A stretch of DNA of 64,000 nucleotides from Amphiscolops sp. MND2022 (Eukaryota), in contig OZ076409.1 in assembly GCA_964187785.1 (NCBI GenBank), positions 6,326,001 to 6,390,000 on the forward strand, written 5' to 3'. Positions 15,942-44,817 of the stretch are shown in pieces; within the stretch, counting starts at the first letter, position 1, and each line of letters opens with the position of its first letter. The notes under the pieces were generated by a model. The model searched no databases. It was not told the origin of the DNA and was given only the letters and a program-made list of their open reading frames with translations. Both the position numbers and the translations under genes were made by a program.

Positions 15942-16280
15942 ACGAATGGATAAAGAATTGGAAAAAATCTTAACCAATCTGAAACCGAAAACATTTAAAA
16001 AACATTCAACATTGTATCTGAAATACAAAAATTTGAGTAGAATTAAATATCGCTACATGTTTACAGTTATGTATTTATAATTTATTTACCCTAAACTTAA
16101 TAAACCTTAACCCGTAGTGGAGGAGGTGTGGTCGAGGCCTTATGCTGAGACAAAACAGAAAATGCGCTAACTATCAATTGAATCTGAAACTGTAAATATT
16201 TAATAAAGTACCTGTCAACACTCGTCGTCAAAACGACACTTGTTCTATTAATTGCAGAAAATTGCCTTGAAAGTTTACAG

Positions 16281-21157: not shown

Positions 21158-21817
21158 GTAAATTTGCAGTACAATAGCGTTTTAAAATATCGCAACCTCA
21201 TTGCTTAAAATTGCAAATTTCAAATCTAAATATCTTCAAAACTGCCACGAATACGAAGACAGCTAGGAAAGTTTTCAAGAATTTTATCTAGTTTACAAAA
21301 ATTTTTGTGTGAATTTTCTGCAACCAAAATTACGAAAATTAGAAATTGAAAATTTTTACAAAATTTAATTAAATTTGCGCTGTTCTATTTCTTGGTATGA
21401 TAAGAAAACAATAGAGTTTATTTAAAAGCTTCTTTTCTGAACATAAATACTGTCAATTGTACGATCTATTCTCTAACTACGTATCGTATCCAAATGATGC
21501 GATCTCAGTACAAAGTATGATGTTTACAAACATATAAACATATGTATAAATAGGTGTCTATGAGAATGATCTAAAGTTTGGTGATTGACAGTGTCAACCG
21601 AAAGGATCGGTTCGGTATATGTACCGTATTACATTTCCTCCCTTCTAAATTCCTTTCGGTCACTGCTTCGAGGTTCCCGGTGTTGGGGTCTTTTCTCGAA
21701 TGAAGTCGGCTGGTTTCGTTAATGGTTTTGGCGGGTCTTTTCGGCTGTTCCATTTCTCGGTGAAACCTGTAACAATTTTACTTCTTCAACGTTATACCCA
21801 AAAATGCTTTGTATAGG

Positions 21818-23494
21818 TGTGATAATCCTCTATTTCTGCTTCTGAATCTTCGTCAGAATGTATAGTTACGTCTACGTCTGATTCACTTCGAAACAGAGGT
21901 TTCGCAGGATGCTTAAAGTCCTTCATTTTAGAAGCCCTAAGAGGATAATCGTCGCTTTCAGAATCTGAATTTTGTTTATTAGATGCGTGAACTCCTATAG
22001 GCGGGTCTATCCTGGATCCCGATGGTTGTGGTTCTTGTATTTCATTTGCTTCAGATCTTGGATTTGTTGTTATTGAAGCACTTTTATTGCATTTTATCTC
22101 TTTTAGAATTGCTTCTAGTTTACTGTCCATTTCTTCTCTCATTCTCTCTATCCTTTCTGTATTTTTCCGTTCAACGATCTGAGTCCAAACTTGTATCTCA
22201 TCACTATTTTGACTGGGTTCTCTTAGTTGGTTTTCAAGGTTCGGTTCACTTAGATTTTCTTGGACATTTAGATTAGAATTAGTTTAAGTTATATTACCTG
22301 TTTCTGAAGAATCAACTCTAGTTTCGCTCACTTCTCTCTCAGGAGATGGGGTTGCTAGTCTCCTTGATCTTCGGCTTCTTTTATTTCCCATTTCACTTAG
22401 CAGAAAACGAGTTATGTTTGCTGGGGAAGAATTTGAATTATGTTCTCAGTATGGAAAAGTCCAAACTTTGGAAAACAATGAAAACTGATGGTATTTGCAA
22501 GAGTCTGGATAAATTGATACAACTGAACTTCAGGAGGGTTATTTCAATTGTGTCTTGCATTTAGGAAACCCCCTCTTCAAAATATAAAAAGAATGACAGT
22601 CATTTTTACAAGTATCATGTAGTCCTGGAAAACACGAAAATAGGATAACGTCAAATCACGTAATTCTATTTATATCGCTCCCACAATAATGCAAATGCGT
22701 CTAGTCATCCTTAAAACCCTAAAGAAAATACTGTAAAATGATATAATAAGCACCCCAAATGCTATTTGATAATGTACAATTGCATGACGTTCAAAACTAC
22801 ACATTTAGCTGAAAACCGCATAACTCCGCATATACTTTGTACCCGAATTCGTAGGGTGACGTATAACACACGTGAACGTTTTCCTCACGTCTGGTTAGTA
22901 GTGTATATACAGCACAATGCGATACGCACAATATTTTGATCAAAAACGTATGTTAACGTATGTTCGTCACTGCGGGAATCGTATAGTGACGTATACTATG
23001 AATGATGGAAAAGCATATTACCGTATACCCTGATAGTTTAAAAACGTATCTTTATGCATATTCAAAAAACGTATAACACCGCATACTCAAAAATCAGTTC
23101 ACGCATAATGGTGTATGCTCATAAAGCCATTTTATGTATAATGACGCATCCTTGTTAATTGAAAAGTGTCTAATGACGTATGTCCCCAGTTCTAATTGTA
23201 GCATGATTACGCATAATGTGGAATCAGAAGTCACAGATTGATCTTGCTTATGTAGTTTTTAAGCACATGTTACTTTTATGAATGAAATTCTGATGAATTT
23301 GACATCACTGAAGGGTTCAGAAAATATCCTAGAATGAAATTCATCAATGGAGAGAAACAAATAATCAGCATCATAATATAAAAATACCATCAACATGAGA
23401 ATTAATCGGAGTTTAAAATGTTTTGTTATCAGGTCTTTCAGGTGTTCCTTTCACTGTTGCACAACGGAACCATCGCACCTCGAGGGATGCGACA
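21818..23494 (-). repeat. Gypsy-C 3' LTR
   Basis: Direct repeat of 36815-38491. Confidence 0.95.
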
Positions 23495-24479
23495 GTCCCG
23501 CATTTTTGAAAAGGAACAACGCTGCTTCGAAGCCATGGATAAATGCCCTTGATCGGATTGTCCTTTCCTTGACTGTTTCCCCCTCATATTCCGTTGCAAC
23601 CAAATATTCGCCTAGTGTCTCTAGCGCGATCTGGTCGTAACATTTTCCGCATAGGTCGCAAAAACCGGCAACATTTGGCATTACCGTGGGTATCAGTCTG
23701 ATACCATGTCTCTCTTGGGCGGGGATTAGCTGGGAGTTCATGCTGTGAGTCATGTTGAATGGGAATCCCAACTGAATCGCTGGCTGCACCAGTTGTGTCA
23801 TATGTTGGGTCCCATGGCTCGTTCCGCTAAAATTAAGAGGGAACAGCATCGGGGATAAATTGAACCCCGTGAAATTTGTTTGTGCCGTTCCTTGTTGTGG
23901 AGCTATATCATTTCGTACCTCTTGCTCCATTGGCACACTTGTCTGTTGTTGCTGGAAATCAGTCAATTCCTGCCTGTAATTTGGCGGGTATACCGGGGTA
24001 GGAGGAGGCAAGAACCCCCTGTCGCCAGGACTTGTCCTTGGATTTGGTGGGACCCTAGCTGTAGGACGACCATAGTTGTTAGTAGTCCTTTCAGGCCCGT
24101 TGCTTATGGTCCATGGAAAAAGGTTTGCTTCTTCAAACTCGCTATCTATAAATGAGTTCGGCGAGTCCATTAATTCGTTCTGAGGAGTTCCGATCAGGTC
24201 CATTAGTTCCCTTTCCAATTGGGTGCCAGACGTGATTGCCGTAAAGTCTTGCCTTGACGATGACTCCGTGTCAGGGTACAGGGTAGCTGCTGCAGCTCCC
24301 ATAAACGCTGACATTAAGTTGCTCCCTGTCGTGTCTATACGGAATCTTTCGTCGAGTTGAGCAATGTCTCCGGGTGCAATGGAGAAATCACCTTCAGACC
24401 CGCTCGAAATATCCACCACGTCGGGAGATATAGGAGAATATAGCGAATCTTCATCAATATCAAACTGAAGTTTGTTCAT
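23451..24479 (-). CDS. Gypsy-C accessory ORF, 342 aa, unknown function
   Basis: Intact ATG ORF. Acidic then P/Q-rich N-terminus, C-terminal CDLCGKC plus helical segment. Ends inside the 3' LTR. Confidence 0.75.
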   Translation of the reverse strand: MNKLQFDIDEDSLYSPISPDVVDISSGSEGDFSIAPGDIAQLDERFRIDTTGSNLMSAFMGAAAATLYPDTESSSRQDFTAITSGTQLERELMDLIGTPQNELMDSPNSFIDSEFEEANLFPWTISNGPERTTNNYGRPTARVPPNPRTSPGDRGFLPPPTPVYPPNYRQELTDFQQQQTSVPMEQEVRNDIAPQQGTAQTNFTGFNLSPMLFPLNFSGTSHGTQHMTQLVQPAIQLGFPFNMTHSMNSQLIPAQERHGIRLIPTVMPNVAGFCDLCGKCYDQIALETLGEYLVATEYEGETVKERTIRSRAFIHGFEAALFLFKNAGLSHPSRCDGSVVQQ

Positions 24480-25435
24480 TTTTGATTTGCAAAGAGATTA
24501 TTCAGTGATTTAGATTTTCAAAACTTTTACAAAGCAACTGATTTATAAAGTTGTAAAGACCATATGGTGAATCTTCTCTTCAGTTTCACCTGATTTTGAC
24601 AAAACCCGCCAAAAAAGTTGGGTGTCATGGTTGCTTGGGTTTGACAAAGCCTTATAGAGGATGGGGATGGCGGGTTGCCATATAAATGAGGGGTTAAGTT
24701 TTGATATCTTCCATAAAGGTAAATAAACAAAATGAGCATAGGTTCATCTGCCTTATCTTTCATCGGCAGCTTCCTTTTGATGTTCCTAGTTTCGTTTCAG
24801 TTACATTTAAATATGATGTAAACAAAGATCATCACCTAAGAATCCACAGGAATGAGTGAATTAATTGCCGAATATAATTTTATCTAGAAGCATCAATGAA
24901 ACTCATATCAATAAAAAACATATTACATGACTATTTAAATGTTTCATCATGTTTGAAATCACATGATCGAACCATGGTAAATCAATTATTGTCCTGCATT
25001 TGAAGAATGCACAATCTTCTATGGTGGGAATGAAGGGGAGACCCTCGCGACTAGGTAGATTGTTAGGAATCCGTTCGTTAGGGTTAACTCAGTGTATATT
25101 ACCACTGTATGTATTGCTACAGACGCCGCCATGCTTTCTCTTTTCTCCAAAATAAGTCAGGTTGTTTATACGTTAATGTCAGAATCCGTATACTACCGCT
25201 TGTTCACCATCGTTCAATGTAATTAGCGACATGGATTTGTCCGCTTCAAATCGGTGTCATGCTACATATCCAATTCTAATGATTACGTAACATCCAATTT
25301 CCTCTCTCTTTCATTTTGCATATTGGCACGTGCTTCTCTCTTAATTTCACATAGTGTCGCGTAGACTACATTCATATTTCCGCGTATTGCCGCGTGTTTG
25401 TAAGTTGCAAATACGCATTCTGCCGCACATCATTC

Positions 25436-25810
25436 GTTTGTGGATCCGCATATATACTCATAATCCCAATTGTAAATCCGCATACTGTTGTATATTGTCC
25501 ATCTATAAATCCGTATAATCACGCATAATCATAATTGAGAGTCCGCATGTTACTGTATATTGTTCATCTGTAAATCCGTATAACCACGCATGATTACAAA
25601 TGTAAATCCGCATATTGCTGTAACTTGTTCATCTGTAAATCCGTATAACCACGCTTGATTACAAATGTAAATCCGCATATTGCTGTAACTTGTTCATCTG
25701 TAAATCCGTATAATCACGCATGATTACACACGTGAGTCCGCATGTTGCCGTATATGGTTCTTCCGTATATCTGTATAATCACGCATGATTACACACGTGA
25801 GTTCGCATAT
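25436..25810. repeat. 65-bp tandem repeat (~5.5 copies) between the divergent accessory genes
   Basis: Unit ATCTGTAAATCCGTATAACCACGCATGATTACAAATGTAAATCCGCATATTGCTGTAACTTGTTC at 25501, 25566, 25631 and 25696. Confidence 0.9.
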
Positions 25811-26243
25811 TTGCGCTCATTTGATACTATCGTCTCGTAAGTTAACACTTATACGCATACCACAAATCTGTGAATTGCCGCAGGTTTGTTTGTTTTCATT
25901 CTTCCGCGTGATGTTGTAATGTCAATTACGTAATCAGACATTCTGGCAGAAGTGACTGACATATTAATTGGCCAATCAGAACGAAGTATTCCATATACTT
26001 TGGTACAAACTTTGTATACATTTGCTCTTTGCCTTTTGTCCCGTCAAGCCACGCCTTTCAATTTTGTTATATCGAAGACTTTCCATTGTATTATATATTC
26101 ATAACATCTTTATTTTTCAGTCAGTTTTACAGTTTACAGAACTTGTTTCTCACTTCCCATCCCAGGATTCTTCCCAGATAGTTTTCCTTTTATTTGTATC
26201 CCCATCGCTCGACAGTGGTAATTGATTTGAACTCAGTTCATCA

Positions 26244-29200
26244 ATGGAAAGCAGCAGGAGTCGGAAGATTGATCGTGAGGACGTTCCAAGGATGCGGACC
26301 AGGTCTTGGGGACACAAATCCCCAGCTACTTCTTCACCCCGTAAGTTCGAATTTGTTTATTAGTTTCAGTTTAGAGTTTCTGTGAGAAAATAGCTGGCCA
26401 GGCTAAAACCTCAAGATTTTCAGATCAATGCATGCTTTTGATCATAATTTGATTTTCGAAAGTTTCTACACTTCCGGTTTCATGTTCATTCGACTTCCGC
26501 TTCCGTGTATTTTCTTTTACAGTTTAATACGGACTTGTTAGACGGTTTAGTCGCATTTGATTCATTACTTTATCGTTGAATAAAGCATATGTTTCAGTCG
26601 AACTTGGAGCTACAATCAAGTCGCCTACCCAGTCACCTACAAAGATATATACTCCTCTGCAGGTCGTCTCACCCAGCCATTCCGAACCCTCGATTTATAG
26701 TATTCCCCTACCAGCTGATCTTCCTCTGAACCACGCGAGGGAAGATATTGAACAACTTCTCTCCGAATCAGGCGGCCTAACGACTGACACAACCATGGAT
26801 GAGGAAACGGTGACCCAAACCTCACTTCTTAACCTCATGCAATTAGTTGAACAAGAACAACCACCAGAGACTCCACTGGCTGATGATGATGACACCCCTA
26901 GTGATGCTGCTGATCAGGATATAGATGAAAACATTGAGCCTCCAATTTTCGGAACCTTTTCTCCTCGTTATAGCCAATTTTTGACTGCTGAATTACGAGC
27001 CGCCATTTCTCAACCCAATACTCCCCCCGTAGAACATAGTCAGACACACAATGTCGATCCTACGTTAACTTTACCGCGCCAAATTTTGAGTGAGGGAATT
27101 AAGGAGGTTCCAACCGGGTCTGGACTCAATATTAACATTACGCAAAATGAAGTAGCGATTTTGAGAAACGTCTTGGATCGGATACCACAGTCCCTTTTGG
27201 TCAGGAGCACAGATGAGCCCAATCCGGAATTTTCAGTATCTGTGGTCGCGAACCCCCCTGTACCGGTTTTCAGTCCCACCCGTAATCCCGAACCAGGAGT
27301 GGGAACAAGTGAACGTCCGCTCAGAGATATTACTGAGTATGAGGAAGAAGATTCGTCTGCTAGACCCGCCAAGCGCCCAAGACCACGATACTGTCTCACT
27401 GAAGCCATGTTCAGGAAACATCCTGTTCTGAAATTTTTCGCAACAGGGCCAATAGACCGCGAAAAGACACCATATAAGTGGTGGTGTAGGGTCTGTCGGG
27501 TTGAATTGTCCCTCATGAGCCGCGGCCCACTCGAACTGTTGTCGCATTACAAAACTGAATCACACCTCTTGAAGGAACACCGAATTAGAATGGAGACGCC
27601 TGGCCTACCATTATATGACAGGGAAGAGATGGAGTTACAAGGAATTGCTCTACAGGAAGCTAAGCGATCGGCTAAAGACATGCACCCCATCGCCCCACAA
27701 CGTGACTTATGTCGATTACTTGTTGGACAAGAAAAACTCCCTGAGCTTAGAAGTGATTCTACGCCGATTGATGTCGTATTGTCCCAGATACGGGTTCTTG
27801 AACTTGGACTCAAACACGGGGGCAATGTTGCGAGTTTGGTAGCAATACACGACGAGATACTGCAACACTCAGCCGGAGGAAGTGCAATCCAGACCCTCGA
27901 TTGGAGTGATTCGCGAATTTTTGTTAGTATTTATTGCATTTATTATAGAATTATACCTCTGACAGCATGGCATGATTTAATGAGATAAGAATATCCAAAC
28001 TCTAATTCCTATTGACATCACTCAATCATTAGTTTTTGTTTCAGGGGATGTTGGTGTACATGTTTCGCGAGCTTGTCAATTATTGTGTTACCCATATTGG
28101 CTCGTCTCAGAATTACTCTTTGTCTTTGTATCGGACCCCAACCAAAATTCTGCTCTTCATTAGCTTTTGGTCTGGAAATGTTTACCAGCGAGTCTGTATC
28201 GGGGCAGGGCCAAGAGGAGTGTTAGTTCCAAGGAAACTACTCGACTTGTTATCTTCTTTCATTACCCTCTTTCAAGCGCCGCCAACTTGTGTGACTCTTA
28301 TTGGCATGTGTGAAAGACTCAATGTAAGCCTTACTGCAACACTACCTGGTAGCTTCCGGCCTAGTACAGTCAACAGTTTTGGACCGAATGAGTTTGAGAA
28401 GTGTCTATCACTTCCTACTGCCAGGATAATAGAGAGGCATGATTTTCGGACCATAATCGATTTTTTGTTGACAAAGTTACGAACTGCCCTTGATCGTGAC
28501 TGGTTACAGTCCTTGCCACTACTACACAAGGTAAGATATTTCCCGTCTCTTCTAATAGTTGATTGATTTTTGTAGTTTCCACATCATAAAAATTTCTTTA
28601 CAGGCAGTACTCAGTCTCGAGTATACTCTAGTTGAAGCTTCCTCCCTGATCGAGTGTTTTTCTTCCAACTGGGACAGAATCAGAGATCATCTGACCCAAG
28701 TTTCTCGATTGCCGGCATATCGCTTCCATATGAAAGAAGTACGTAACTCTCATTGCTGGATTTTACATTTGTAAGACTTTTGTTTTAATTTCGATTTTCG
28801 TTCTAGCCCAGCGCGCTCGACGAATGCTTTCGCCTGGATACGGCTTATCTAGCTCGATTATTTGTCATCCGTTGCATCATCGACAATTGTTAGTACAACC
28901 TCATCATTTTCACTCCTTTAGCACTATTTCGCTAGTTCCATTCCATTTTCGCTATCATCCAGTTCCATTTTTGTCTCCATCTTTTAAAAGATTTTGGTCT
29001 TTAAAACTCGCTGAAAAACTCCAATTTCTATTTCAACAATAGATTACTCTGTGTTTCTTCTTTATGAGGCCATAGAGGATATTTCCACGTGCTTTCAATT
29101 ATTTCCGCATAATCACGCACATGCAGTTTACCATAATCCGTCTAATGACGTATATATGTGCTAATACCCCACGTCCGCTGACACACAGTTTAGATTCATA

Positions 29201-30656
29201 ATCCGCCTAGGGACGTTCCTACGTCATTCGGGATTCCGCATAGTGACGCATTATCCATATTCAATTTCCGCATGATAGCGCAGTGCTTCATGCTTGGTTT
29301 CGTGAAGTGACGTAGTGCTGAGAATCATTTTCTGCATAGTGACGTAGTACATTATACTAAATTCCGCATATTAACGTATTGTTGAGAATCATTTTCCGCA
29401 TAGTGACGCATATGCGCCACTGAAGGTTCCGCAATGTCACATATCTTTAGCTTCAGCTTCCGTATGATGACGTGTAATCTCGATCACTAATTCTGCATCG
29501 AAGTGTATTTCTCATTCAAAGGATGATCCATCTTCATGCGATATGTTTTGTTTTAGACACTTCCGCGTTTTCCGATTTGCAGAGCCATCTCGACCAAGGA
29601 TTCAGAATCTTTAACCAGTTTTCTGTATTTATATACAGTCAGTTACAGCTGATATTGCCAGATAGTTTTCTCGGGGATATTTCTGAATGGGATTCCTACT
29701 TGAAGGTTGACCTGACACAGACTGATCTTCCTTTCAAGACCCCCGCAGATTTCATTCTGAACCCGGATTACCACCATTTGATTACTTCCAGCCGTTTACC
29801 ACGTCCTAGCAAGTTTGTGGAGCAATCAATGGCGTTCTGCAAATCTTTCTGTGGTGTACTTTTATCCCACAACATTTTGAAATCACCTCTGATTCGTGGT
29901 TTATCTTCTTTTGATAGCGCTGTCATGTTAGATGGGCCTGAGCGTCATTACATAGCCGCTATAGAAGATCTCACAAGCTATTTTGTATCTTCCAGTTTGA
30001 TTACTCCTGGGGACAAAACCAAATGTGTCAGTCAGTATCGATCATTGGTGACCAAATTCCGTACTGCTAGTGACGTCCCGAGAGGTGATTGGGTTCTATT
30101 CCTTGGGGCTTATTACGAGATGCAGAGCCGACCGGAACTTTCTAGTGTGTTTCGGTATGCCAGTCTATGTTTACCGCCAACTGTTACGATGCCAACTTCC
30201 TTCAAGATTTCAGTCCCAGATCTTGCTTCCGACCAAGAGGTGTTCCAGTCCGTAGTCAGCAGTTTGCAGCTTTCATATGTCACCGTTCCCAACGTTTCTA
30301 GTCTTTACCAGGATCCTCGATCCGTTTATCGTATATTTCGTTTGTTGGGGCGGGGACGGGAGTTGCTCAGTGACAAAAAGTTTTCTGTTTGGACCTTTTC
30401 ACGTGGCAGTGTACCTAAACGGCTTGCCTTACGAGAAAAAATGGAGACTGCGTATAAAAAGACAGTTTTACATGGTGAAGGATTGCCTATCTTTTTGGAT
30501 GTGTCTTCACCAAGTGGTAGTGCTCCTTCTAGTAGCAACAGTTCTCCGCTTCCTGGTCCTTCTCTGGGGCTCGTTTCTGTGAGTGTCGCTCGTTGTGGTG
30601 AGGCAGAGGTAAACAATGACAAGACCAAGAAGAAAACCAAGGCTAAGAAGTCTTGA
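26244..30656 (+). CDS. Six-exon antisense gene of Gypsy-C, ~1074 aa, BED-like zinc finger / hAT-transposase-derived protein
   Basis: Exons 26244-26340, 26598-27922, 28045-28530, 28604-28738, 28807-28888, 29557-30656. All five introns are GT-AG with matching phases (1,0,0,0,1), giving 3225 nt open. WWCRVC-x16-H-x5-H. NLS-like RPAKRPRPR and KKKTKAKKS. Confidence 0.8.
29095..29480. repeat. Degenerate TTCCGCATAGTGACGYA motif array in intron 5
   Basis: About ten copies spaced roughly 30-45 bp. Same motif family as in the 65-bp array and the LTRs. Confidence 0.75.
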
Positions 30657-30851
30657 TCGAATGAGCTCGCTTCACAACTTTTATATTAGTTGACTTTTTG
30701 ATGGTTATAAACTGTGTTCTCTTATGTTTTGTTTGTATTTATTTTATAGTTATGTTGTTTGCTACCACAAAGGTACTGTTTTTGAGGGAAATTCTGTATT
30801 ACTCAATTCCCAGGAAGGAAGTTAGAAACAAAATTTTGTAGAAGTTTGTTT

Positions 30852-33800
30852 TTAGTATCTATAGGAGTCTGAGTAGTTTGGGTTAGGGTTGGGGCGTAAG
30901 TTGTATTTTTCACCACGAGTATTTATGGGTTCTTCTTGCAATGGAGTTTTTTGTGAGTTTTCTGGAGTATTTTGAATGTCGTTCACTGGTGAATTTTCGA
31001 TATCTTTTTGGGTTTTTTGGGTAATTTGGGCATCCTCTCCACTTTGTTGTGGACTTTCATTTTCATGATTTTCATTTGGTTCAGTGGTCTGTTCCACTGG
31101 GCTCCCCTCACTACTTTTTGGAAATTTGGGGGAGGGAGGGTGGTTATTTTCAGGTACTTCAACAGGTATGTATTCGATATCATCAGTATTTTGTGTATGA
31201 TCTGGAGGGCTATCCTCAAATGGGTTAGGTCCAAAATTTGTATTCCATGATTGGGCATATAAGTCATCATGAGCTACTGGCATCTGATCATCTTTTTGCC
31301 AATCAGTTTCGCGAACGAAAATGTCTGCTAATGGCGCTTGCGGGGTAAATTTCCGTGAACGGATCCTGTGTAGTAATTGCGTTTTGTTAGTTCCAAGTCT
31401 CCGAACAATATAATTATTGTTAGGGAGTACTTTTTCTATTTTATATGGACCACACCATCTGAATTCTCGGAATGGTATTTTTGTCGCTTGAGTATCTGCT
31501 TTTGGGTTAAGAATATAACAATAGTCCGTCGTTTCAAGCGGAGCTGCTTTGGCTTTTCGATCATAGTAAGCTTTGTATTTGAGGTACGATTGCATAATGT
31601 TCTTCTTAGTTTGATCCAAGAGGATTTTCATTCGTTTTTGAATTTCTTCTGCCACATCTGACTGTGGTTGGTATCGTGGGTTAGGGTTATATCCGAGTTT
31701 GTAGTCGAGGATATTATGTGGTATTCTACCATGGAAAACTCGTGAAGGTTCACAGCCGAGTGATGCATGGTATGTTGTATTGTGGTTGAGGACTGCCAGT
31801 GGGAGATATTTATGCCAATTATTTCTGAATTCGCCTGTTGCAGCTTTCAGATGTGTTTTCACTGAGGCATGGGTTCTCTCGAGGAGTCCTATTGTTTGGG
31901 CATGTTTCATTGTGGCATGTTTAAGTTCAATTCCTAGCACTGCTGCAGTTTCGTGAGTCACCTGTGCGTTGAACTGGGTTCCTAAATCCGTGATTATTGT
32001 CGTTGGTAGGTAGGTGTGTTTGCATAATATATCCATGACGACTCTTGATACTGCTGTTGCAGTGATACGAGTTACGGGATATGCGAACAAATACCTCGAG
32101 AAAACATCTATGGCTGTGATAATATGGTCATATCCTCCGCTCGGGAGGGAGGTTTGGTAGGATGTCCATCTGTAGGATGTCTTCCGGACCTAGATCCCAT
32201 TCTGGACAATTAAGGAGTTCTGTCCTTAGGAGGTCATTGTTAATACGTTTGGTTTGGATGCAGGTTTGACAGTTACTGCCCCACTTTTTTATGTACTTTG
32301 CCATACAAGGATAGTAATATTTTTGTCTTGCTTCTTGTATCATTTTCGTGATACCTGGGTGGTTTGAATTATGGCCATGTAGGGCTTGGAGGAATTCGTC
32401 TACGAGTTGAATCGGAAGGAGAATTTGGTAATGTTATACTGTTCCAGTATCCGTATAGTATTTCCTGGTCAGGACTTCTTGTTTTATCTCAATCCGTGTT
32501 ATGTTTTGCAGATAGTGGTGGTATCGGTAGTCAGATGCTAAATCGTTTTCGTCAAAGGGTTCGCCCTCTATTTTCGCTCTGAGATTTCTGAGAACAATGT
32601 CATTATTTTGTTCGAGGCGAATCCTTGCATTGTCTCTGAAGTATCCTGATGATACCGAGATCAAACCCGATGTGGGTTTGTGGAAATGTTGTAGTTCAGA
32701 GATGTCATTTTCTGGTTCGTTGTGGGTTTCAGTTTGAGCTTGTGTACGTACATTTTGTTTTTCTTCCCAAAGTTGATTCTCGTCTATTTCATCATCGGGG
32801 AGAATGTAGATTTGTTCTTCTTCTACGATACCTGATGATTGGATGTTGACTTCTATTGCCTTTGTGTAGATGTCATCGCGGATAGTCATTTCTAGCTTTT
32901 CTTTTGGGTTTACTTCTGTTCTGGATAAAAAATCTGCTGCAGTGTTCAAGGAACCAGCAACGTGGGCAATGACAAAATTATATTGCAATACATAATCGCA
33001 GGCGTTCCAGAGTGCTGGAGGAATCATTTTTGTTTGAAAGAATCGGGTTACCGAGCGATTGTCAGTAAACACGATTACCGGGAAGGTGTTGCCCCACATC
33101 AGGTGTCCAAATTCCACAAATGCGAAGTGTATGGAAAGGAATTCTTTTGCGTAGATTGACATCTTGGTTTGTGAGGGATTGAATGTTTTGGATCCAAACG
33201 CTATGGGTGCATAGGTTTTTCGTTTGGATTGTAACGTCTGGTTCGGGTCATCTTCTATCATGATTGCATAGCCCGCCGCAGTAAAACTAGCATCAGACAT
33301 GACTATGAGCTGTTTGTGTTTTAGTGGTTATTTCAGTGCCAGTTGGCAGCAATTTTCGAGAAGTTTGTTTAAGCTTGCAAAGTCGTCGACTAAATTTGTT
33401 GGTACATAGAACTTGGAAGTTTCTTTGAGGAGTTTGAAAAACGGGGTTAGACGTTCTGAGAGGCGAGGAATGTAGTTTCGGTAATAATTCAAAAATCCGA
33501 TATACCTTTGTAATGCCTTTTTTGATTTAGGAAAACGAAGCTTTGAGAGGAAGTCTTTAACCTTGTCGGCTTGTGGGGCGACTCCATCTGGGGTGATTGT
33601 ACGACCCAGAAAGTCGACTTGTTTGACTCCGAAATGACATCTAGACATTGAGAGTTTTAATCCTGCGTTGCGGATGCATTCAAACACTGTTTTGATGTTA
33701 AGACACAATTGTTTGGTGTCGTTGGCTGCTATGCCTATGTCATCGACATATTGGGCACATTGGTCTGCTTTAATCGCTTTGTCTAGGTAGTCTCTCATGA

Positions 33801-35706
33801 AACTCGAAAATGCTGAAAGGGATCTGCTGAGACCCTGGGCAAGCCTACGGTATGCGAATGTTCTGCTTGCAAAGTTAAAAGCGAGCATTTGTATGGACTG
33901 ATAATCTGCCATTTGGAGGCAGTGGTAAGCCTGGGAGCAGACTAGTTTACAGAAAAGTTTTTTCCCCGCCATATGTTGGGCTGCATCCGATAATGTGCTT
34001 ACCGGGTGGTTGTTGTTGGCGTAATCTTCTGTGATTAAGTTGTTGATTTTTCGTAGGTCGACTAGAAGTCTGAGCCGCCCGTTAGGTTTGCGTTGTGCAA
34101 AGAATGGGCTTGCGTATTTTGAGAAGGGTAGAGTTGTTATGATGCCATACTTGTGTAGAAGTGCGAGTTCTACAGTGATATCATCTTTGAGGGTAATTGG
34201 AGTCGGTAGACTTTGGCTATAAGCAGGTCTGTCATCGTTGGGTGTGAGTTTTACTTTGAATTCGCGATTTATGCCAATATCAAAACGATGTCTGGCAAAA
34301 ATATCGTGAAACTCAATGAGGATTTCTTCAATTGCTTTGCGTTCATCTGAGGTGAGTGTTGTGTCAGACCAATCGAAGTGTGAGAGAAATGCTGTTCTGG
34401 AGGTTTCACTATCATGTGGGTTTAGTTTCTCGAGTTCTTTGAGTTCGAGAAGTTCATTATATATACGTTGCTGAATTGGGGTGTATGTTGTAGGGTCGCC
34501 TGGTTCTTCAGGTGTAGGGAACCAGTATGTTTCTTGGTCTGAATGTTGTTGTGGTACTTTAAGGAGTTCATTTATGTGGACTTCAGTTGTTTCCTCATAT
34601 TGTATCATGAAGGATAGTAACGCTGGATCAACTGGTTGTATATGTTTGATTTGTTCTGGGGTTAGTATCTTAAAATCTGCTAAATGGGTATCCATTGTGA
34701 TTGTATGGGGCAGTTCTGAAAAGTTGATAATTTGATAACCGATAGCATTGTTGTTAACAGTACTGAGTGATGCAGTAATGAAAATGCTATCATGATTTTC
34801 GTATTGTTGTGATGGGGTAACTATGCCAGTGGCATTATGGTCCATTAGGTGAGGCATTCTGCTTGCTATTGCAAGGGTTTCGCCTGGTTGTAATGTGTAA
34901 GTGTTTTCGGCAAATAATGGTGTTGCTTGGCGTATTGCTGTTTGGGTATCGGGTTTAAGTTGCATTGACAGGTAGGGAAATGTTAAGATGCCTTGGTTGA
35001 CATCGAAAATTGCATTGTTTCTGCGGAGGAAGCACAGTCCTATCAGTGGGTTCGGTAGATTTTTCATGATGATGAAATTTTCTTTTAACATGAAATCAGC
35101 CACTTCGAATTCCAGTAGTACCGTACCAATGGGGACTTCTAGTTGTCCATTTTCCACCATGATTTGGAAGTTTGGTGGGGGACCAGTTTCTTTAATTGCT
35201 TCGTTTGCTAACAACTTTATTTTATTAAGATCTTGTTCGGAGATCGCACTTGTAAGGGCTCCGGTATCAATAAGACCATCAAGTGTAAGCTTTTCGAAGT
35301 CCATTGGGATATAGTACATATGGCGTTTTCGTTTTAATGTCAAAGAGGTTGAGATCGGAAGATATGACAAATTTCGTTCCTTGTCAAATTGTATGTGTTC
35401 GGTGAGGTCTTCATTGAGAAGAGGTTGTTTTTCATCATTGCCAGAAGTTTTAATTAGGACATAATTTTTTGGTGATTGTGGGGATTCTGGGGTTGAGTCA
35501 GTTGTGGGACAGGTTGGTTGTTGTGTAAAGTAGTTGTCTGGTGCGTCATGTAAGAGTTCATATATATCTTCAGGTTGAGTTTCTTGTGTTGTGGAATCAT
35601 TTTTGTTGTTTATGATTTTTGTAGATTTTGGGCTCGGCTGATGCTGCCAGACATCTGCAGGGCTTAATTTTTGTAGTGGGTTTTTGCAAAGGCGTGGCGA
35701 TTCTAG
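30852..35706 (-). pseudogene. pol: Gypsy-C pol (PR, dUTPase-like spacer, RT, RNase H, IN), -1 frame to gag
   Basis: LIDTGA, YVDD, SDASF, integrase HHCC and D..D..E, GPY. Stops at 33328 and 32434, frameshift at ~32140. The first RT Asp position reads Val (KLVCSQAY). Confidence 0.93.
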
Positions 35707-37388
35707 TTTAAATCCTTCGAAGTGGATTGTTGTGGGCGTTCGATTTTTGGTTTTATTGGTTTTCGAGCTTGTTTGTATTCTTCAATAACTTTCTTTTGGG
35801 CGTCGGTGAGATTCCACTTAGGTGGGCGATTTTCCATGTTGGCGCCAAAGTAGCAATTTTCTTCCTCGTGACCTGGTGTGTTGCAGTTTTCACACTTTGC
35901 CGCATCCGGGTCTTCTTCAAGTTTTCGTCGTTTTGCTAGTTTGGGGCAATCGGCCATCATATGTCCTGCCTCTTTGCAATAACGGCATTGGTTATTTTTG
36001 AGTGTTTTGTCAGGTACTGTTTTAGGCGTTTGTTTTTTGGTTTTTTCGTTCGGTTTTTTGTTAGTCTTCTCAGTGTTTTGCTCTTTTTTAGTAGCGGTCA
36101 TTTGGGTTTTAACTAGGGGTTCATCTGCTTCGAGACCGTTAAGTTCCATCTCTCTTTCGAGATGTTTAACTATCTGATCGTATGTTCCATTTTCGAGGTA
36201 GGCTTGGTTTATGGACTTTTTGAGATGTGGGGGCATTTTTGCGTAAAGTAGATTCTCTATCATTTGATGGGCGTTGTCCCCAAACGCTTTCTCGGCACTT
36301 TTTTGGAGTTCTTCCAGGAAATCCGGGAGTTTTTGGTTCTCTGGGTCAAATGAGAGTCTGTTGAATCGATGCTTGGCAGATGCGCTAGACTCTGGTTTGA
36401 CGTATTTTCTGCGGAAGACCTTTAGAATATCATCTAAGGTTGTATTTGGGGTTCTTTGTAAGTTTTTGAATGTTTTGAGAGCCAAACCTCTTAGATGTGC
36501 GTGAAAATGGTTGATTTTCATTTCCTCTGTTAGGTTTGGTTGCATTCGAAGTGTTGTGTGGAATAAGTCTTCAAAGTATTCGAATTTCTCATTTTTCTCA
36601 TTTTTCCCATTGAAGGTGAGTGTATTTTTAGGATGAAATAATGACTGTGGAGAATTTTTGTTTGCCAATTTTTCGATTGCTAATGCAATCTGATTTACTG
36701 GATCGAGAGGCTTCGGTGTCATATTCGACGAGTTTTGGTCTGCGCGGGATCCTAATGTGTCGTTTAGCTTCTGTGAGCTTTGTCTATGGAGTTGTCGGTT
36801 GGCTCCTGTCACCATGTGATAATCCTCTATTTCTGCTTCTGAGTCTTCGTCAGAATGTATAGTTACGTCTACGTCTGATTCACTTCGAAACAGAGGTTTC
36901 GCAGGATGCTTAAAGTCCTTCATTTTAGAAGCCCTAAGAGGATAATCGTCGCTTTCAGAATCTGAATTTTCTTTATTAGATGCGTGAACTCCTATAGGCG
37001 GGTCTATCCTGGATCCCGATGGTTGTGGTTCTTGTATTTCATTTGCTTCAGATCTTGGATTTGTTGTTATTGAAGCACTTTTATTGCATTTTATCTCTTT
37101 TAGAATTGCTTCTAGTTAACTGTCCATTTCTTCTCTCATTCTCTCTATCCTTTCTGTCTTTTTCCGTTCAACGATCTGAGTCCAAACTTGTATCTCATCA
37201 CTAATTTGACTGGGTTCTCTTAGTTGGTTTTCAAGGTTCGGTTCACTTAGATTTTCTTGGACATTTAGATTAGAATTAGTTAAAGTTATATTACCTGTTT
37301 CTGAAGAATCAACTCTAGTTTCGCTCACTTCTCTCTAAGGAGATGGGGTTGCTAGTCTCCTTGATCTTCGGCTTCTTTTATTTCCCAT
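35703..37388 (-). pseudogene. gag: Gypsy-C gag (~561 codons, starts inside the LTR, two stops in this copy)
   Basis: ATG at 37388 (MGNKRSRRSRR) is in frame with ORFs 37116-37328 and 35703-36923. Two CCHC knuckles (CRYCKEAGHMMADC, CENCNTPGHEEENC). Both stops are sense codons in the 3' LTR copy. Confidence 0.88.
35706..35712 (-). promoter_or_regulatory. -1 ribosomal frameshift slippery site T TTA AAC
   Basis: XXXYYYZ heptamer directly before the gag TAG. The -1 frame is open from here into the protease. Confidence 0.8.
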
Positions 37389-38491
37389 TTCACTTAGCAG
37401 AAAACGAGTTATGTTTGCTGGGGAAGAATTTGAATTATGTTCTCAGTATGGAAAAGTCCAAACTTTGGAAAACAATGAAAACTGATGGTATTTGCAAGAG
37501 TCTGGAGAAGTTGATACAACTGCACTTCAGGAGGGTTATTTCAATTGTGTCTTGCATTTAGGAAATCCCCTCTTCAAAATATAAAAAGAATGACAGTCAT
37601 TTTTACAAGTATCATGTAGTCCTGGAAAACACGAAAATAGGATAACGTCAAATCACGTAATTCTATTTATATCGCTCCCACAATAATGCAAATGCGTCTA
37701 GTCATCATTAAAACCCTAAAGAAAATACTGTAAAATGATATAATAAGCACCCCAAATGCTATTTGATAAAGTACAATTGCATGACGTTCAAAACTACACA
37801 TTTAGCTGAAAACCGCATAAATCCGCATATACTTTGTACCCGAATTCGTAGGGTGACGTATAACACACGTGAACGTTTTCCTCACGTCTGGTTAGTAGTG
37901 TATATACAGCACAATGCGATACGCACAATATTTTGATCAAAAACGTATGTTAACGTATGTTCGTCACTGCGGGAATCGTATAGTGACGTATACTATGAAT
38001 GATGGAAAAGCATATTACCGTATACCCTGATAGTTTAAAAACGTATCTTTATGCATATTCAAAAAACGTATAACACCGCATACTCAAAAATCAGTTCACG
38101 CATAATGGTGTATGCTCAGAAAGCCATTTTATGTATAATGACGCATCCTTGTTAATTGAAAAGTGTCTAATGACGTATGTCCACAGTTCTAATTGTAGCA
38201 TGATTACGCATAATGTGGAATCAGAAGTCACAGATTGATCTTGCTTATGTAGTTTTTAAGCACATGTTACTTTTATGAATGAAATTCTGATGAATTTGAC
38301 ATCACTGAAGGGTTCAGAAAATATCCTAGAATGAAATTCATCAATGGAGAGAAACAAATAATCAGCATCATAATATAAAAATACCATCAACATGAGAATT
38401 AATCGGAGTTTAAAATGTTTTGTTATCAGGTCTTTCAGGTGTTCCTTTCACTGTTGCACAACGGAACCATCGCACCTCGAGGGATGCGACA
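36815..38491 (-). repeat. Gypsy-C 5' LTR
   Basis: Ends CA immediately before the PBS TGG on the minus strand. Confidence 0.95.
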
Positions 38492-38496
38492 ATAGG

Positions 38497-40875: not shown

Positions 40876-41413
40876 TAGCGGCACTCTGGAGGTATTTGTG
40901 CATCAATTCTAGTTTTGAGACGAATTGTATTCTTTGGGAACGTATTCCTGATTGAAGCAAAGATCTGGTCTAAGACGTCATTGCAAAAAAATCCACCAAG
41001 TAAAGCCAAGGGATCAAGTCAGAGGGACAAGATCCACCGAAACAATCAAGTTCGTCAAACAAGGCAAGTATAATCGACAGTATTGGGTTGATTCTTCAAG
41101 AATTGGCGATTGATTACCGGATTGAGCAGTTGACACTTTGTATCTGAGAAATTGCAGAATTCGGAAAAGTGACAAAGCCTACAAGAAACAATTGCGAAGT
41201 TCGAAAGCCCTCAGTGGAACAAAAGAGTCATATGAACAAATGAAAGCCAAAAAGAAAGAAAGGCAAGTGATGCAGCACCCTCGAATGACAAATGTGTTTG
41301 AAGGAAGAAACACAAAGCAGAGCCAACAACTGATGGAAATCAGACCAAAAGATTTGGAAAATGTGTCAGATTGGTAGCCATGGAGCCTCTATTGGAATAC
41401 TGTACCCCTACAT

Positions 41414-43384
41414 GTGGAAAAGCTCCATACGTTAGTAAAAGACTTGGATGACAAGCTCGATGAGGAAAGAGCTGTTGTATCCAAAAGAAACTTGATTGAT
41501 TGGGTAATTGAATACCGCGAGAGAAGACAGGCGTTGCTGTTCTGTGTAGACTTTATGTTGAGTCTTACAAATGAAGAAACGCAAAGACAGCTCAGTCGAA
41601 GTGTGACTGAATGGGACGAATGCTTTGCGAAACTGGAATCGAGTTGGGGATATTGGTTCCCCGATGTGCAGCAAATGTTGAAGTGTCCAATTGATGGGAA
41701 AAAAGAGTTGAAACTGAGTCAGATGACAAATGGAACATCTGCCGACGCAGCTATGAGATGCCCTCGCACAAGAAAGTTGAGGCAAAGACGTGTCCAACAG
41801 GCAAAACATAATTGTGTAAAGAAAACAGCTAATGAAAAGGAATCACTGAAACGGTCAAGAAGGACCAATGACCAAGCAAGTTGCTGTGTTATGAGAGACA
41901 GCATATCAGAATGGGAAAACTCAATCAACGTTGTGACATCACTACTCGAAGAAAACAGTAAGGTGTCTGACGTAACAATCCAGATGGACAACAGAACAAC
42001 AGTTAACACGAAGCGGTCTAATGGAGATCGACTGGTTCCTCTAGCATTAGAGAAAGCGGAAGACCAGAAATCGGGTGAAGTCCAAGGCCAAAGAAGCGAG
42101 ACTGGACAATTGGAAATAGAGGAACTGGGCAAACATCCACAACTGGTTGAAACCAGAAGCAACAGAAGCTCAGTGATTTCGAAAAGTTCAAGTGCCAGAC
42201 GAGTTCTTTATTTGAAAGTAAAAGCTCAGAAAGAGCAAGAAGAACTGCAAATCCGACTCGAGAAACTAAAGCGTGAAGCAATACAAATGGAAATAGCTGA
42301 CTTGCATGAACAGCTTGCCCGCAAAGCCAGAATAGCTGAAAAGGAAAGAGAAATAGCGGAAGTGTCGAGCAGTCAGGGGACTAGCTTCCCAAGTGTCTCA
42401 TCAGTCGACAGATTCACGGAGGACTCAAGATCCATGGTTGAGACAGAAACAGTCGAAGACGGGGCTAAGTCCAATTTTGCACTATCAGTTCATTCGAAAT
42501 CAGAGAATGCAGTGAAATTAGTTCACGAAGGAAAATTCTCCGCGCTTAGGAGAGACTCAAAACCTCCCACAGAAGCCGATGAGCAAGCTGATCGGAACGA
42601 CAGAACCAGAACCAATGCTGATAACGGAACATGCAGACAAGGAGCAACAACACAACCAGACGTGAAAGTTGCAAACAAAGGAACCTCGAAGTTCCTCACA
42701 GCGGAATGCATACAGAACTGGTCAAAAACATTCATTGTAGACAACAGTCGGCAAGACGTCCGTTCAGAAACCCTCCTCATGGATACGAAACAGGTTTTGG
42801 AAGAAAAGGATCACATGTTCATGAGTCAGCAATCAATAGTGCAAACAGAGGAGATCTTGAAGTTCACATTGACGGAAACAAGGAAGGAGCATAGATTCTT
42901 ATCATTCGCATCTAGCAAGCAAACTTTGGGAGAATCGAGTGTCCAACTTGAACTGCTGCAAGACAGTGAAGAAAATACCGCCGTACAACAGGACATACAA
43001 CAAGGGAAAATATTCGAAGTGACGATGTTTCATGACAGTACTCTACTTCTTGAAGAAGGAAACAATTGTTTTGAATTCGACAAAAGTTATGTCTTTGTGC
43101 ATGAGCAACAGTTTGCACTGCTTAATGATTGTAATGAAGAAGCAATGTATCGAAAGCTATGCCATGTTGCAGCGAAACATGACAAACCCGTTGAATGCAA
43201 TGCCAAAGGTGAAACAGGTACCATGATTGCAACCTTTGGAAAGAAATTTGATTTTGACTTCAAAGTAAGCCTTGTAGAAGAAACTATCCGAGTAATAACG
43301 ATATGTGGAACCCTCGGATTGGAAATGGAAACTCTGGGATGGACGCCGTGGCACAAGCTAATGGCATGGATAAAATTCAATTGA
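41414..43384 (+). CDS. BEL/Pao gag-like ORF, 656 aa
   Basis: Long open frame. Ser-rich then coiled-coil segment (RSNRSSVISKSSSARR..EQEELQIRLEKLKRE) typical of BEL gag. No RT motif. Confidence 0.6.
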   Translation: MEKLHTLVKDLDDKLDEERAVVSKRNLIDWVIEYRERRQALLFCVDFMLSLTNEETQRQLSRSVTEWDECFAKLESSWGYWFPDVQQMLKCPIDGKKELKLSQMTNGTSADAAMRCPRTRKLRQRRVQQAKHNCVKKTANEKESLKRSRRTNDQASCCVMRDSISEWENSINVVTSLLEENSKVSDVTIQMDNRTTVNTKRSNGDRLVPLALEKAEDQKSGEVQGQRSETGQLEIEELGKHPQLVETRSNRSSVISKSSSARRVLYLKVKAQKEQEELQIRLEKLKREAIQMEIADLHEQLARKARIAEKEREIAEVSSSQGTSFPSVSSVDRFTEDSRSMVETETVEDGAKSNFALSVHSKSENAVKLVHEGKFSALRRDSKPPTEADEQADRNDRTRTNADNGTCRQGATTQPDVKVANKGTSKFLTAECIQNWSKTFIVDNSRQDVRSETLLMDTKQVLEEKDHMFMSQQSIVQTEEILKFTLTETRKEHRFLSFASSKQTLGESSVQLELLQDSEENTAVQQDIQQGKIFEVTMFHDSTLLLEEGNNCFEFDKSYVFVHEQQFALLNDCNEEAMYRKLCHVAAKHDKPVECNAKGETGTMIATFGKKFDFDFKVSLVEETIRVITICGTLGLEMETLGWTPWHKLMAWIKFN

Positions 43385-43947
43385 GCAAAGGCCACCGCAA
43401 GCGACCGAAGAAACAAGCTTGGAAGTTTGAACATAGCTCAAACCGATTACATGAAATGGTCGAAAGTGTTCAATTGACAACTGGCATCCTATATGCAAGG
43501 ATTGTGATAGATGAATTTCCAGACGAAATATCGCTAATGAAAACGCCATTAGGTTCTTCAAAAGCACGAACAACAACAAGTTCGGAAAATGGGCCTTGCA
43601 TAGGGCCGGCTGCAACATTGGAAGAAAAGATGATGCAACTTGAACCTTTGGGAAAATGGAACAAAGAAGACGTTCGACAACTGGGAGTCAATGATTTGGT
43701 TTGGGTAGTGGACGAGATGATAAAAAGAGCACACTACAAGATGGGTAGAGTGTTAGAAGTCTTTCATGGAAGCGATGGGCGAGTGAGATCAGCGCTGGTG
43801 AAAACGGAAGATGGAAAACTCAAAAGAACAGTAGTGAAACTGGCACCCATGTTCTACGAAAGTGTTTTTCGGGAGAAAAACAGGGCCGGCAATGTTGGCG
43901 CCAGTCATCAAAAGGCAAAGAAACGCGATTCAGAACATGTTGAGTGA
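43303..43947 (+). pseudogene. BEL/Pao integrase C-terminal remnant (DUF5641-like)
   Basis: KW..LGVNDLVWV..YKMGRVLEVFHGSDGRVRSALVKT..RTVVKLAP. Confidence 0.8.
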
Positions 43948-44817
43948 GAAACAAGACTTAAACTCTCAAAACCTTACATGGAAATTTGAAGAAATTCCAA
44001 TCATCACAAAATCGGTGAACCCCCCCAGTCTAAGTTTTCTCCACGACTATAAGTCATAGAGCCACGAAACTTGGCACACATATGCAGGTACATAACACAA
44101 ACACACCGGCTAAGTTTCAAGGTCATCCACCTATTATAACCCCCTTAGCCTTCACATGTGTAGTATTCAAGGTCATTGAGACAAAAAAGTAAACATTGCT
44201 ATTTACCCCTATGACCACATTAGATTGTGACTCTGTTGCAATTGATGATATTTACATTGTGTAAACATGCTTCAGAGCCCACCTAACCAACATGCTATAC
44301 CCACAGTATGGTTTATTTACATAGCCTATAACGTTAATAATTCACTTGAATGTCGTTTATTTATACCACATATTTTAACTTATATTCGCTCTATATTTAC
44401 TGTAGAATTGTAAACGATATGTATACCATTATTAGATAGAGATTTTCTCCACTGAATAGCTATGGTCAAGTTGGGTCTCAGGACCAAGAGACTAATTAAT
44501 CAACTTCTCATTCTTCACAAATTTTCGCTAGAGTCAGAGCGACTAAGTAGCTACTCTCATAGTTGGAGAGCCGGAGCGCGTGAAGATACAGTGAGGGAAG
44601 TGTGTTCAGGATCACATCGGATCCAATTCAGTGCAAAGCGGAATCGCAGGAGATTCCACGGGTCACATCGGACCCGTGGTGTCAAAAGATACAGTCCTTT
44701 AAACAAGAAAACCAGGAATTGTTTAGTGACGGTCCACAGCACTAAGCAACGGATCAGGGCGGCGTAAAGTTTTTCAAGCCTCATCGCAGGATAAAGGCAA
44801 GCAGCCGTTACACCAGT

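Follow-up and report, generated by a model that had tools for sequence, protein, structure and literature searches.

Retrotransposons with long terminal repeats (LTRs) are commonly regarded as requiring no genes other than gag and pol, and accessory regulators count as a mark of complex retroviruses, with antisense ones present in some plant and fungal elements. The pX region of human T-cell leukaemia virus type 1 (HTLV-1) encodes Tax and Rex in sense and the spliced HBZ in antisense, and in foamy viruses an internal promoter drives Tas and Bet. Here we describe a 16.7-kb Ty3/Gypsy retrotransposon in a 64,000-nucleotide stretch of contig OZ076409.1 (positions 6,326,001 to 6,390,000, forward strand; hereafter the window) that carries two accessory genes between pol and its 3′ LTR, namely an intron-bearing antisense zinc-finger gene of five exons and a sense open reading frame (ORF) of 342 codons, ORF342, an organisation closer to that of a complex retrovirus than to that of an ordinary transposon. 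We consider it likely, at roughly three chances in four, that the two genes form a lineage-wide accessory module of selected proteins, with the antisense gene spliced, which serves the element's own nuclear regulation.

The closest described layouts come from plants. Between pol and the 3′ LTR, additional antisense ORFs are described for maize Grande (gene23), rice RIRE2, Silene Retand and Phaseolus PvRetro13 (PMC7264820, PMC11963269). According to passages of the first paper, the antisense ORFs are conserved in most copies of a family, lack database homology and are suspected of a regulatory role; the Grande gene has its own internal promoter and a nuclear protein, the elements have a long internal region, and Retand has a tandem repeat (PMC7264820). 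The same excerpts describe brtn, an antisense gene of Boty-like Gypsy elements in Botrytis cinerea and Sclerotinia that has been suggested to act as the elements' own regulator (Zhao et al. 2011, as cited there), and summarise retroviral antisense and accessory genes (PMC7264820). From bdelloid rotifers and planarians, parts of two further papers describe Juno/Vesta-type elements with an env, DEDDy, GDSL, coiled-coil or transmembrane ORF3, and the planarian element Burro (PMC5408684, PMC6431247).

The element in the window resembles Grande, RIRE2, Retand and PvRetro13 in that a conserved antisense gene without database homology follows pol ahead of the 3′ LTR in most copies, and in its long internal region, with a tandem repeat as in Retand; this is a likeness of layout and not of membership. 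It differs from these plant elements in that its antisense gene is far larger (976 aa, five exons) and encodes a C2H2-like finger, in that a second, sense gene is interlocked with the polypurine tract (PPT) and the LTR, and in that its host, judged by a BEL/Pao-type neighbour in the window, is probably not a plant. To our knowledge, BEL/Pao elements are confined to metazoans. Boty elements with brtn are likewise of the Gypsy type, with an antisense accessory gene placed after pol and before the 3′ LTR; the element described here differs in that the 976-aa protein has one CxxC...H-x5-H finger and in that a second, sense gene and motif arrays are present as well. Complex retroviruses likewise pack sense and antisense accessory genes between pol or env and the 3′ LTR and likewise have a 3′ gene lying over the PPT and U3, and the parallel may extend to probable internal or antisense promoters and to a presumed role that is regulatory and not structural. 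By contrast, the element described here is of the Gypsy type without env, and its antisense gene begins well within the element rather than in the LTR; its accessory proteins show no likeness of sequence or fold to any of those of retroviruses, and the analogy is organisational only. As in the rotifer and planarian Gypsy-like elements, there is extra conserved coding capacity beyond gag and pol, which in those elements lies downstream of pol or within the polyprotein. In the passages cited above, however, that capacity has recognisable domains or forms part of a polyprotein, whereas both proteins here are orphans; the same passages mention no antisense or intron-bearing gene, and those of PMC5408684 use the word antisense once, for small RNAs, and the word intron nowhere.

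A preliminary description of the locus, made from the sequence alone, had noted antisense extra ORFs in plant elements, as the cited passages confirm (PMC7264820, which adds fungal Boty), and knew of no animal Gypsy element with this layout. We likewise found no animal Gypsy element with an antisense spliced gene in the full-text literature, subscription journals and Repbase/Dfam lying outside that scope. An antisense accessory gene in a Gypsy element is a known strategy, here in an unusually elaborate form, so that the novelty lies in the degree and the host range and not in the kind. The elaboration consists of a pair of orphan genes, the conservation of all four introns and of the arrays, and the interlocking with the PPT and LTR, and the host genome is probably that of an animal.

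The element and its inherited cassette

The element lies on the minus strand of the window and consists of the following parts.

21818-38491, minus strand: whole element, 16.7-kb Ty3/Gypsy LTR retrotransposon
21813-21817 (left) and 38492-38496 (right): flank sequences, the two copies of the target site duplication (TSD) ATAGG
36815-38491, minus strand: 5′ LTR in element orientation, 1677 bp
36797-36814, minus strand: primer-binding site (PBS) TGGTGACAGGAGCCAACC, abutting the 5′ LTR with zero spacer
35703-36796, minus strand: gag, Retrotrans_gag / Ty3 capsid-like, with one CCHC knuckle
30852-35781, minus strand: pol, with protease (PR), reverse transcriptase (RT), RNase H and integrase with a GPY/F-like motif
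23495-23507, minus strand: PPT candidate AAAAATGCGGGAC, abutting the 3′ LTR
21818-23494, minus strand: 3′ LTR in element orientation, 1677 bp, TG...CA ends

We searched the genome (1.07 Gb in 1929 contigs) with four pieces of this element. The antisense-gene region (26500-30700) gave ten other near-full-length matches at 96-99% identity, together with further subfamilies, one at 75-85% and one at ~66% identity. In nine of the ten copies with ends read, the coordinates of the LTR, pol and the rest of the cassette fit together, in the shared order LTR, ORF342 region, array, antisense gene, pol, LTR; the pol of the tenth was not one of the 25 pol candidates scored. All ten are flanked by target duplications of 5 bp (GCTGT, CGTAT, GTTCG, ATCAT, GTTCC, GCATC, ATCTA, AATGT, GCATA and GCTAG), which are distinct from one another and from ATAGG.

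The same arrangement recurs at much greater distances. Two relatives retrieved from databases, which share 46% and 34% identity with the finger exon, match loci of this genome at 98% identity, and each has dozens of copies here. We took the best genomic match to the 46% relative as lineage A, that to the 34% relative as lineage B and one of many 73% matches to the second relative as lineage C. At the amino acid level their finger exons are 45% (A), 29% (B) and 31% (C) identical to that of the window, and their RTs 58-80% identical; in all three, the surrounding 17-20 kb holds an LTR, gag, pol, an antisense finger gene and a sense ORF342-like gene ending at the LTR. These observations support the conclusion that the cassette is an integral, inherited part of an old retroelement clade and not a later insertion or a one-off capture. 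The preliminary description had proposed the position of the cassette (23495-30850) as a check: it lies between pol and an LTR in independent insertions with different TSDs and in lineages A to C. It is not unique to this copy, since at least ten others carry it, and each target duplication flanks the whole element, which contradicts a present-day nested insertion.

The anatomy of the element, as previously proposed, was also confirmed. The LTRs are 99.05% identical over 1677 bp (16 mismatches and no gaps by blastn), with TG...CA ends and ATAGG on both sides, and this identity suggests a relatively recent insertion. The PBS, TGGTGACAGGAG, is the same in all seven other close or subfamily copies read (eight sequences with the window); lineages A and B still share its first 11 or 12 bases, although the flanks have diverged. 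The PPT candidate consists of purines at 10 of 13 bases, and its position points to this role. In the minus-strand frames, Pfam detected gag-asp_proteas and RVT_1 (33328-35781), RT_RNaseH (32434-33327) and rve (30852-32189), the order PR-RT-RNase H-integrase, with the integrase last, being that of Gypsy elements; it detected no Chromo domain in the integrase ORF. In 35703-37115, zf-CCHC scored over the cut-off, and Ty3_capsid and Retrotrans_gag scored under it. The gag and pol genes overlap by ~76-79 nt in a -1 frame, and the stop-to-stop frame of gag continues into the LTR. Pol of the window copy has in-frame stops near 33327 and 32433 and a frameshift near 32189, which other copies lack, and a single unbroken pol frame of 1617-1684 aa is present in three of seven other copies read. 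The window copy is unable to supply pol because this frame is broken; both of its accessory genes are intact. Rfam and tRNA scans of the window found nothing. Copies of the LTR at 84-97% identity are numerous in the genome, and the element is a Ty3/Gypsy (Metaviridae-type) LTR retrotransposon, one copy of a multi-copy family.

Some copies are of interest in their own right. A mosaic subfamily (G000:C7:15745935-15762882 and G000:C2:10504864-10521855; loci L037-L041, L048 and L049) is 98% identical to the window in gag-pol, 84% in the LTRs, ~66% in the antisense gene and ~75% in the ORF342 region, and seems to reflect block exchange of gag-pol between lineages, as from template switching between co-packaged RNAs. 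Matches to the finger exon recur at an exact spacing of 14,673 bp at G000:C7:62495965 / 62510638 / 62525311 and of 15,161 bp at G000:C13:16095246 / 16110407 / 16125568. At the first of these sites, one period contains a 2328-bp direct repeat of 99.9% identity, which together with the even spacing suggests tandem arrays of elements with common LTRs. Two further copies, at G000:C11:37352062-37367031 (plus strand) and G000:C11:37696650-37713300 (minus strand), stand ~345 kb apart in inverted orientation with the same internal alignment breakpoints (query 1-2909 and 2809-4200), which looks like an inverted segmental duplication rather than two insertions.

Two accessory genes under purifying selection

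The coding parts of the two accessory genes are as follows.

26795-27922, plus strand: exon 1 of the antisense gene, 376 aa counted from its first ATG; CxxC-x16-H-x5-H finger preceded by KRPRPR
28045-28530, plus strand: exon 2, 162 aa; acceptor CAG/G, donor AAG/GTAAGA
28604-28738, plus strand: exon 3, 45 aa
28807-28888, plus strand: exon 4, 27 codons and 1 nt, phase 1
29557-30656, plus strand: exon 5, 2 nt, 365 codons and TGA (coding to 30653); all-alpha; tail KKKTKAKK
23451-24479, minus strand: ORF342, 342 aa and stop (23454-24479 without the stop)

The earlier proposal of a spliced antisense zinc-finger gene held up as a predicted gene model and was refined to five exons encoding 976 aa, with four GT-AG introns in phases 0, 0, 0 and 1. 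Exon 1 encodes a fast-evolving acidic N-terminal part, KRPRPR, the finger and a conserved region. Comparison among copies argues convincingly for genuine introns. Six diverged copies retain 47 of the 48 splice dinucleotides compared, the single exception being a degenerate copy in which the first donor has moved by one base. Introns of the most distant copies are 30-44% identical, compared with 54-72% for exons, and intron lengths range among copies over 104-123, 71-76, 68-72 and 647-1070 nt, with differences that are not multiples of three. Moreover, most of the distant relatives of exon 1 (23-28% identity), which are plain-ORF predictions, continue into 'VS', the translation of a GTnAGT donor, and the intron position is therefore ancient.

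To measure selection we computed the ratio of nonsynonymous to synonymous substitution rates (dN/dS) against the 75-85% subfamily, at dS values of 0.5-1.8. The ratio was 0.04-0.05 in the conserved part of exon 1 and 0.17-0.19 in its acidic N-terminal part, 0.04 in exon 2, 0.05-0.06 in exon 3, 0.02-0.05 in exon 4 and 0.05-0.06 in exon 5. For ORF342, comparison with three diverged copies covered in full gave 0.07-0.08 and showed neither stops nor gaps, and a fourth copy, covered in part, gave 0.14. RT and integrase gave 0.03 and 0.06, respectively, in the same comparison, and three out-of-frame segments (of exon 2, exon 3 and gag), which served as an unplanned control, gave 0.7-4.7 with many stops. 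Over their conserved parts, both accessory genes are thus shown to be under purifying selection as strong as that on RT and integrase. All five exons are intact in the window copy and in three of the 11 close copies examined; the other eight each have a stop, frameshift or truncation in the antisense gene.

Searches for relatives of the antisense protein returned 284 representatives for the finger exon and 104 for exon 5. In alignment A1, whose 20 rows comprise the window's exon 1 and 19 of the 284 relatives, every row has residues C78, C81, H98 and H104 in the conserved part of exon 1; these metal ligands are those of a single C2H2-like finger and not of a six-cysteine (Zn2Cys6-like) cluster. 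Basic runs resembling nuclear localisation signals stand ahead of the finger (KRPRPR) and at the C-terminus (KKKTKAKK). Relatives with a listed source are unnamed ORFs from unannotated ENA contigs, two of these contigs also present in JGI or MGnify; none of ten clusters looked up bears a name, and no exon-5 relatives were found among proteins of 640-2000 aa. The best match of one relative, P0065, in this genome is only 36% identical, and the family therefore also exists elsewhere.

Recognisable domains are few. Pfam gave no match above threshold in the accessory ORFs; below threshold, zf-C2H2_ZN292 fell on the finger in five of 16 distant relatives, and at E <= 1 nothing consistent appeared in 42 exon-5 relatives. 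PDB sequence profiles gave no meaningful match for the accessory proteins. The AlphaFold2 model of exon 5 consists entirely of helices, with block means of the predicted local distance difference test (pLDDT) of 70-97 over residues 11-210; Foldseek found no match to it at E <= 0.001, and the best score of a wide VIA-align search, Z 5.0, is within noise for helical models.

ORF342 was correctly described as a sense gene standing head-to-head with the antisense gene around a 65-bp array. It extends 44 nt into the 3′ LTR, which supplies its last 14 codons and stop, and the PPT candidate AAAAATGCGGGAC falls within the codons for its residues FKNAGL. The stretch FKNAGLS, encoded by the PPT candidate and the LTR tip, is nearly invariant in alignment A3. 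ORF342 is physically interlocked with the replication signals, namely the PPT and the LTR end. Its protein has an N-terminal acidic motif (DVVDISSGSE), a P/Q-rich middle and a conserved C-terminal part of ~85 aa with a CxxC. The conserved DVVDISSGSE stretch resembles what we take to be a SUMO-interaction motif. We found 121 relatives, down to 32% identity and mostly of 340-350 aa. No Pfam or PDB sequence match was found for ORF342, nor a usable ESM Atlas result. AlphaFold2 predicts a mostly disordered protein (mean pLDDT 46.9) with helices only at residues 87-95, 281-295 and 303-326, including a C-terminal helix hairpin.

Motif arrays and candidate promoters

The non-coding parts of the cassette contain the following features.

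25444-25811, plus strand: intergenic 65-bp tandem array, 5.7 copies, 85% matches
29104-29408, plus strand: motif cluster of intron 4, five TCCGCAT cores, including a 32-bp array at 29306-29408
24480-24740, minus strand: conserved non-coding blocks upstream of ORF342, from a five-way alignment of diverged copies

The 65-bp array had been noticed between the two genes before and was recovered here; the 32-bp array in intron 4 is an addition. Each 65-bp unit has two (A/T)TCCG(C/T)ATA cores. TCCGCAT occurs 17 times in the window, where 5.3 occurrences are expected and none of 100 shuffles reached 17, and 15 of these lie inside the element, where the 65-bp array accounts for six, intron 4 for five and each LTR for one. 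In element sense, the array core reads TATGCGGA. Both arrays are present at the same two places in four of four diverged copies, with all cores on the plus strand; the cores keep TCCGCATA and the remainder of the unit differs, and the intron-4 arrays of these copies have the same core in 3-10 copies. Lineage A (L058 and L059, G000:C1:96146000-96165999) has, in an intron of its antisense gene, an array of 18 40-bp units (locus positions 9864-10597) and, in both LTRs, arrays of four 50-bp units (557-758 and 15939-16100). All of them begin with TATGCGG, which is the same core as that of the window arrays in element sense.

The region upstream of ORF342 (24480-24740) contains the conserved blocks CATATAAGG; CCATGAC..TTTTTT..GCGGGGTT; TCACCATATGGTCTTT; and a TCAGT-type initiator-like site, and is a candidate internal sense promoter. 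Together with the arrays, we read these blocks as putative cis-regulatory sites.

Competing explanations, a possible circuit and the surroundings

We weighed the accessory-module reading against other explanations of the cassette. It might be foreign, a nested DNA transposon, another element or a transduced host gene that is carried without serving the retrotransposon. The host-like introns of the antisense gene and the orphan status of both proteins would suit such an origin. So would the ESM Atlas neighbours of the finger region at scores of 0.90-0.92, which are clusters bearing zf-C2H2_12 and one, 'FAM200B-like', in which 10% of the members have zf-BED, and the presence of the C-terminal part of the Hermes hAT transposase among the best exon-5 structure rows (Z 5.0, root mean square deviation 8.3, a weak match). 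However, when profiles were compared with hhalign against four hAT ORFs from this genome, the probability was 0.1% for exon 5 and 2.1% with the finger taken by itself, a Z of 5 is within the noise for helical models, Pfam found no hAT family in the exons or, at E <= 1, in the 42 exon-5 relatives, and we do not adopt a hAT-transposase origin. Every lineage examined, three deep ones included, has this module in an unchanged order; each target duplication encloses the whole element, ORF342 and the PPT and LTR end interlock, and both genes are as constrained as RT and integrase, which idle cargo is not expected to remain. While an ancient capture may have given rise to the module, a foreign cassette is very unlikely. 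A slightly different doubt concerns the antisense unit, whose main product might be an RNA that pairs with the genomic RNA and brings about small-RNA silencing or self-limitation, the ORF being secondary. The gene is antisense to the genomic RNA across 3.9 kb, and passages of PMC7264820 treat regulatory antisense transcription in micropia, TART, IAP and plant elements. Against this, dN/dS values of 0.02-0.06 over ~820 codons, intact frames in diverged lineages, kept splice sites and much faster-evolving introns show that the protein is under selection; an RNA-level side effect could coexist with a protein function, and we regard RNA as the main product as improbable.

The position of ORF342, the 3′-most sense gene beside the PPT, is where retroviral env or nef-like genes sit, and envelope-carrying Gypsy elements are widespread in metazoans according to parts of PMC13524379. 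ORF342 could accordingly be imagined as a degenerate or unconventional env or movement protein and the element as endogenous-retrovirus-like. Unlike the product of errantivirus-like, env-carrying Gypsy elements, however, its protein has no transmembrane-like segment (the top Kyte-Doolittle mean over 19 residues is 1.07), carries a net charge of -21 and is modelled as mostly disordered; Pfam at E <= 1 found no env family, and no consistent family of any kind, in 46 of its relatives. We give this explanation hardly any credence.

For the accessory-module reading itself, some results count on the other side. No domain was recognised beyond the finger, whether with Pfam, PDB sequences or the exon-5 fold search, and neither AATAAA nor ATTAAA occurs in 30601-31400, a stretch that reaches ~750 nt past the antisense stop. 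The arrays are absent in lineages B and C, and an array as the protein's target would therefore not hold across the whole clade. Lesions in one or another gene are common among copies, as expected because the element is a transposon, and selection is deduced between lineages, not within the window copy. Of the earlier claim that this is a complex retroelement lineage with its own nuclear regulators, the lineage part stands, given the deep lineages, the independent TSDs and the selection; a nuclear, DNA-binding action is our guess from one finger, the basic runs and the conserved arrays.

If the accessory module does serve the element's regulation, its workings may be pictured as follows. The antisense gene would be transcribed from an internal promoter near 26.1-26.7 kb and then spliced. 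Its introns would outlast retrotransposition because the replicating RNA is the opposite strand, from which they cannot be spliced. ORF342 may be expressed from an internal sense promoter beside the array or, less likely, from a spliced subgenomic RNA, and its mRNA would be polyadenylated via the 3′ LTR. The zinc-finger protein would enter the nucleus and act on the element's own DNA, most plausibly at the arrays, tuning sense and antisense transcription in the manner of the accessory regulators of complex retroviruses, and the disordered ORF342 protein could serve as an adaptor via short linear motifs. In its boldest form, this scheme is a self-run circuit in which the spliced antisense finger protein binds the TATGCGGA arrays and controls a bidirectional internal promoter that also drives a disordered adaptor with a SUMO-interaction-like motif, comparable to Tas or HBZ and independent of retroviruses, in an old, diversified and probably animal Gypsy clade. 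We offer that full circuit tentatively and think it more apt to fail in some part than to hold. If it were true, the two orphan proteins would found new families, with a testable DNA target.

Across a large radiation of elements within one genome, strong purifying selection has maintained two orphan genes, and, if their proteins act on the element's arrays, they would represent an independent origin of self-encoded transcriptional control in a retroelement. Such elements are open to mis-annotation as a host zinc-finger gene beside a Gypsy fragment.

The window as a whole is a nest of retroelements. Another Gypsy element at 58233-62702 (minus strand) has one unbroken gag-pol frame of 1489 aa with CCHC, RVT_1, RNase H, Integrase_H2C2 and rve (Pfam). 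At 41378-43947 (plus strand), an ORF with DUF5641 (BEL/Pao-type) comes after one of 668 aa, and at 44808-48617 (minus strand) a broken-up Gypsy element (CCHC, RVT_1, RNase H, Integrase_H2C2) lies beside the BEL/Pao-type ORF. Elsewhere in the genome, the hAT dimerisation domain (PF05699) has at least 150 matches, several of them in open frames of 600-700 aa; hAT transposons are abundant, and some look intact. Finally, twin ORFs of 189 aa each, at 4659-5228 and 10761-11330 (plus strand) and 6102 bp apart, lie in a region with strong positive AT skew; neither has a Pfam match, and they are probably two repeat units or the two ends of another element.

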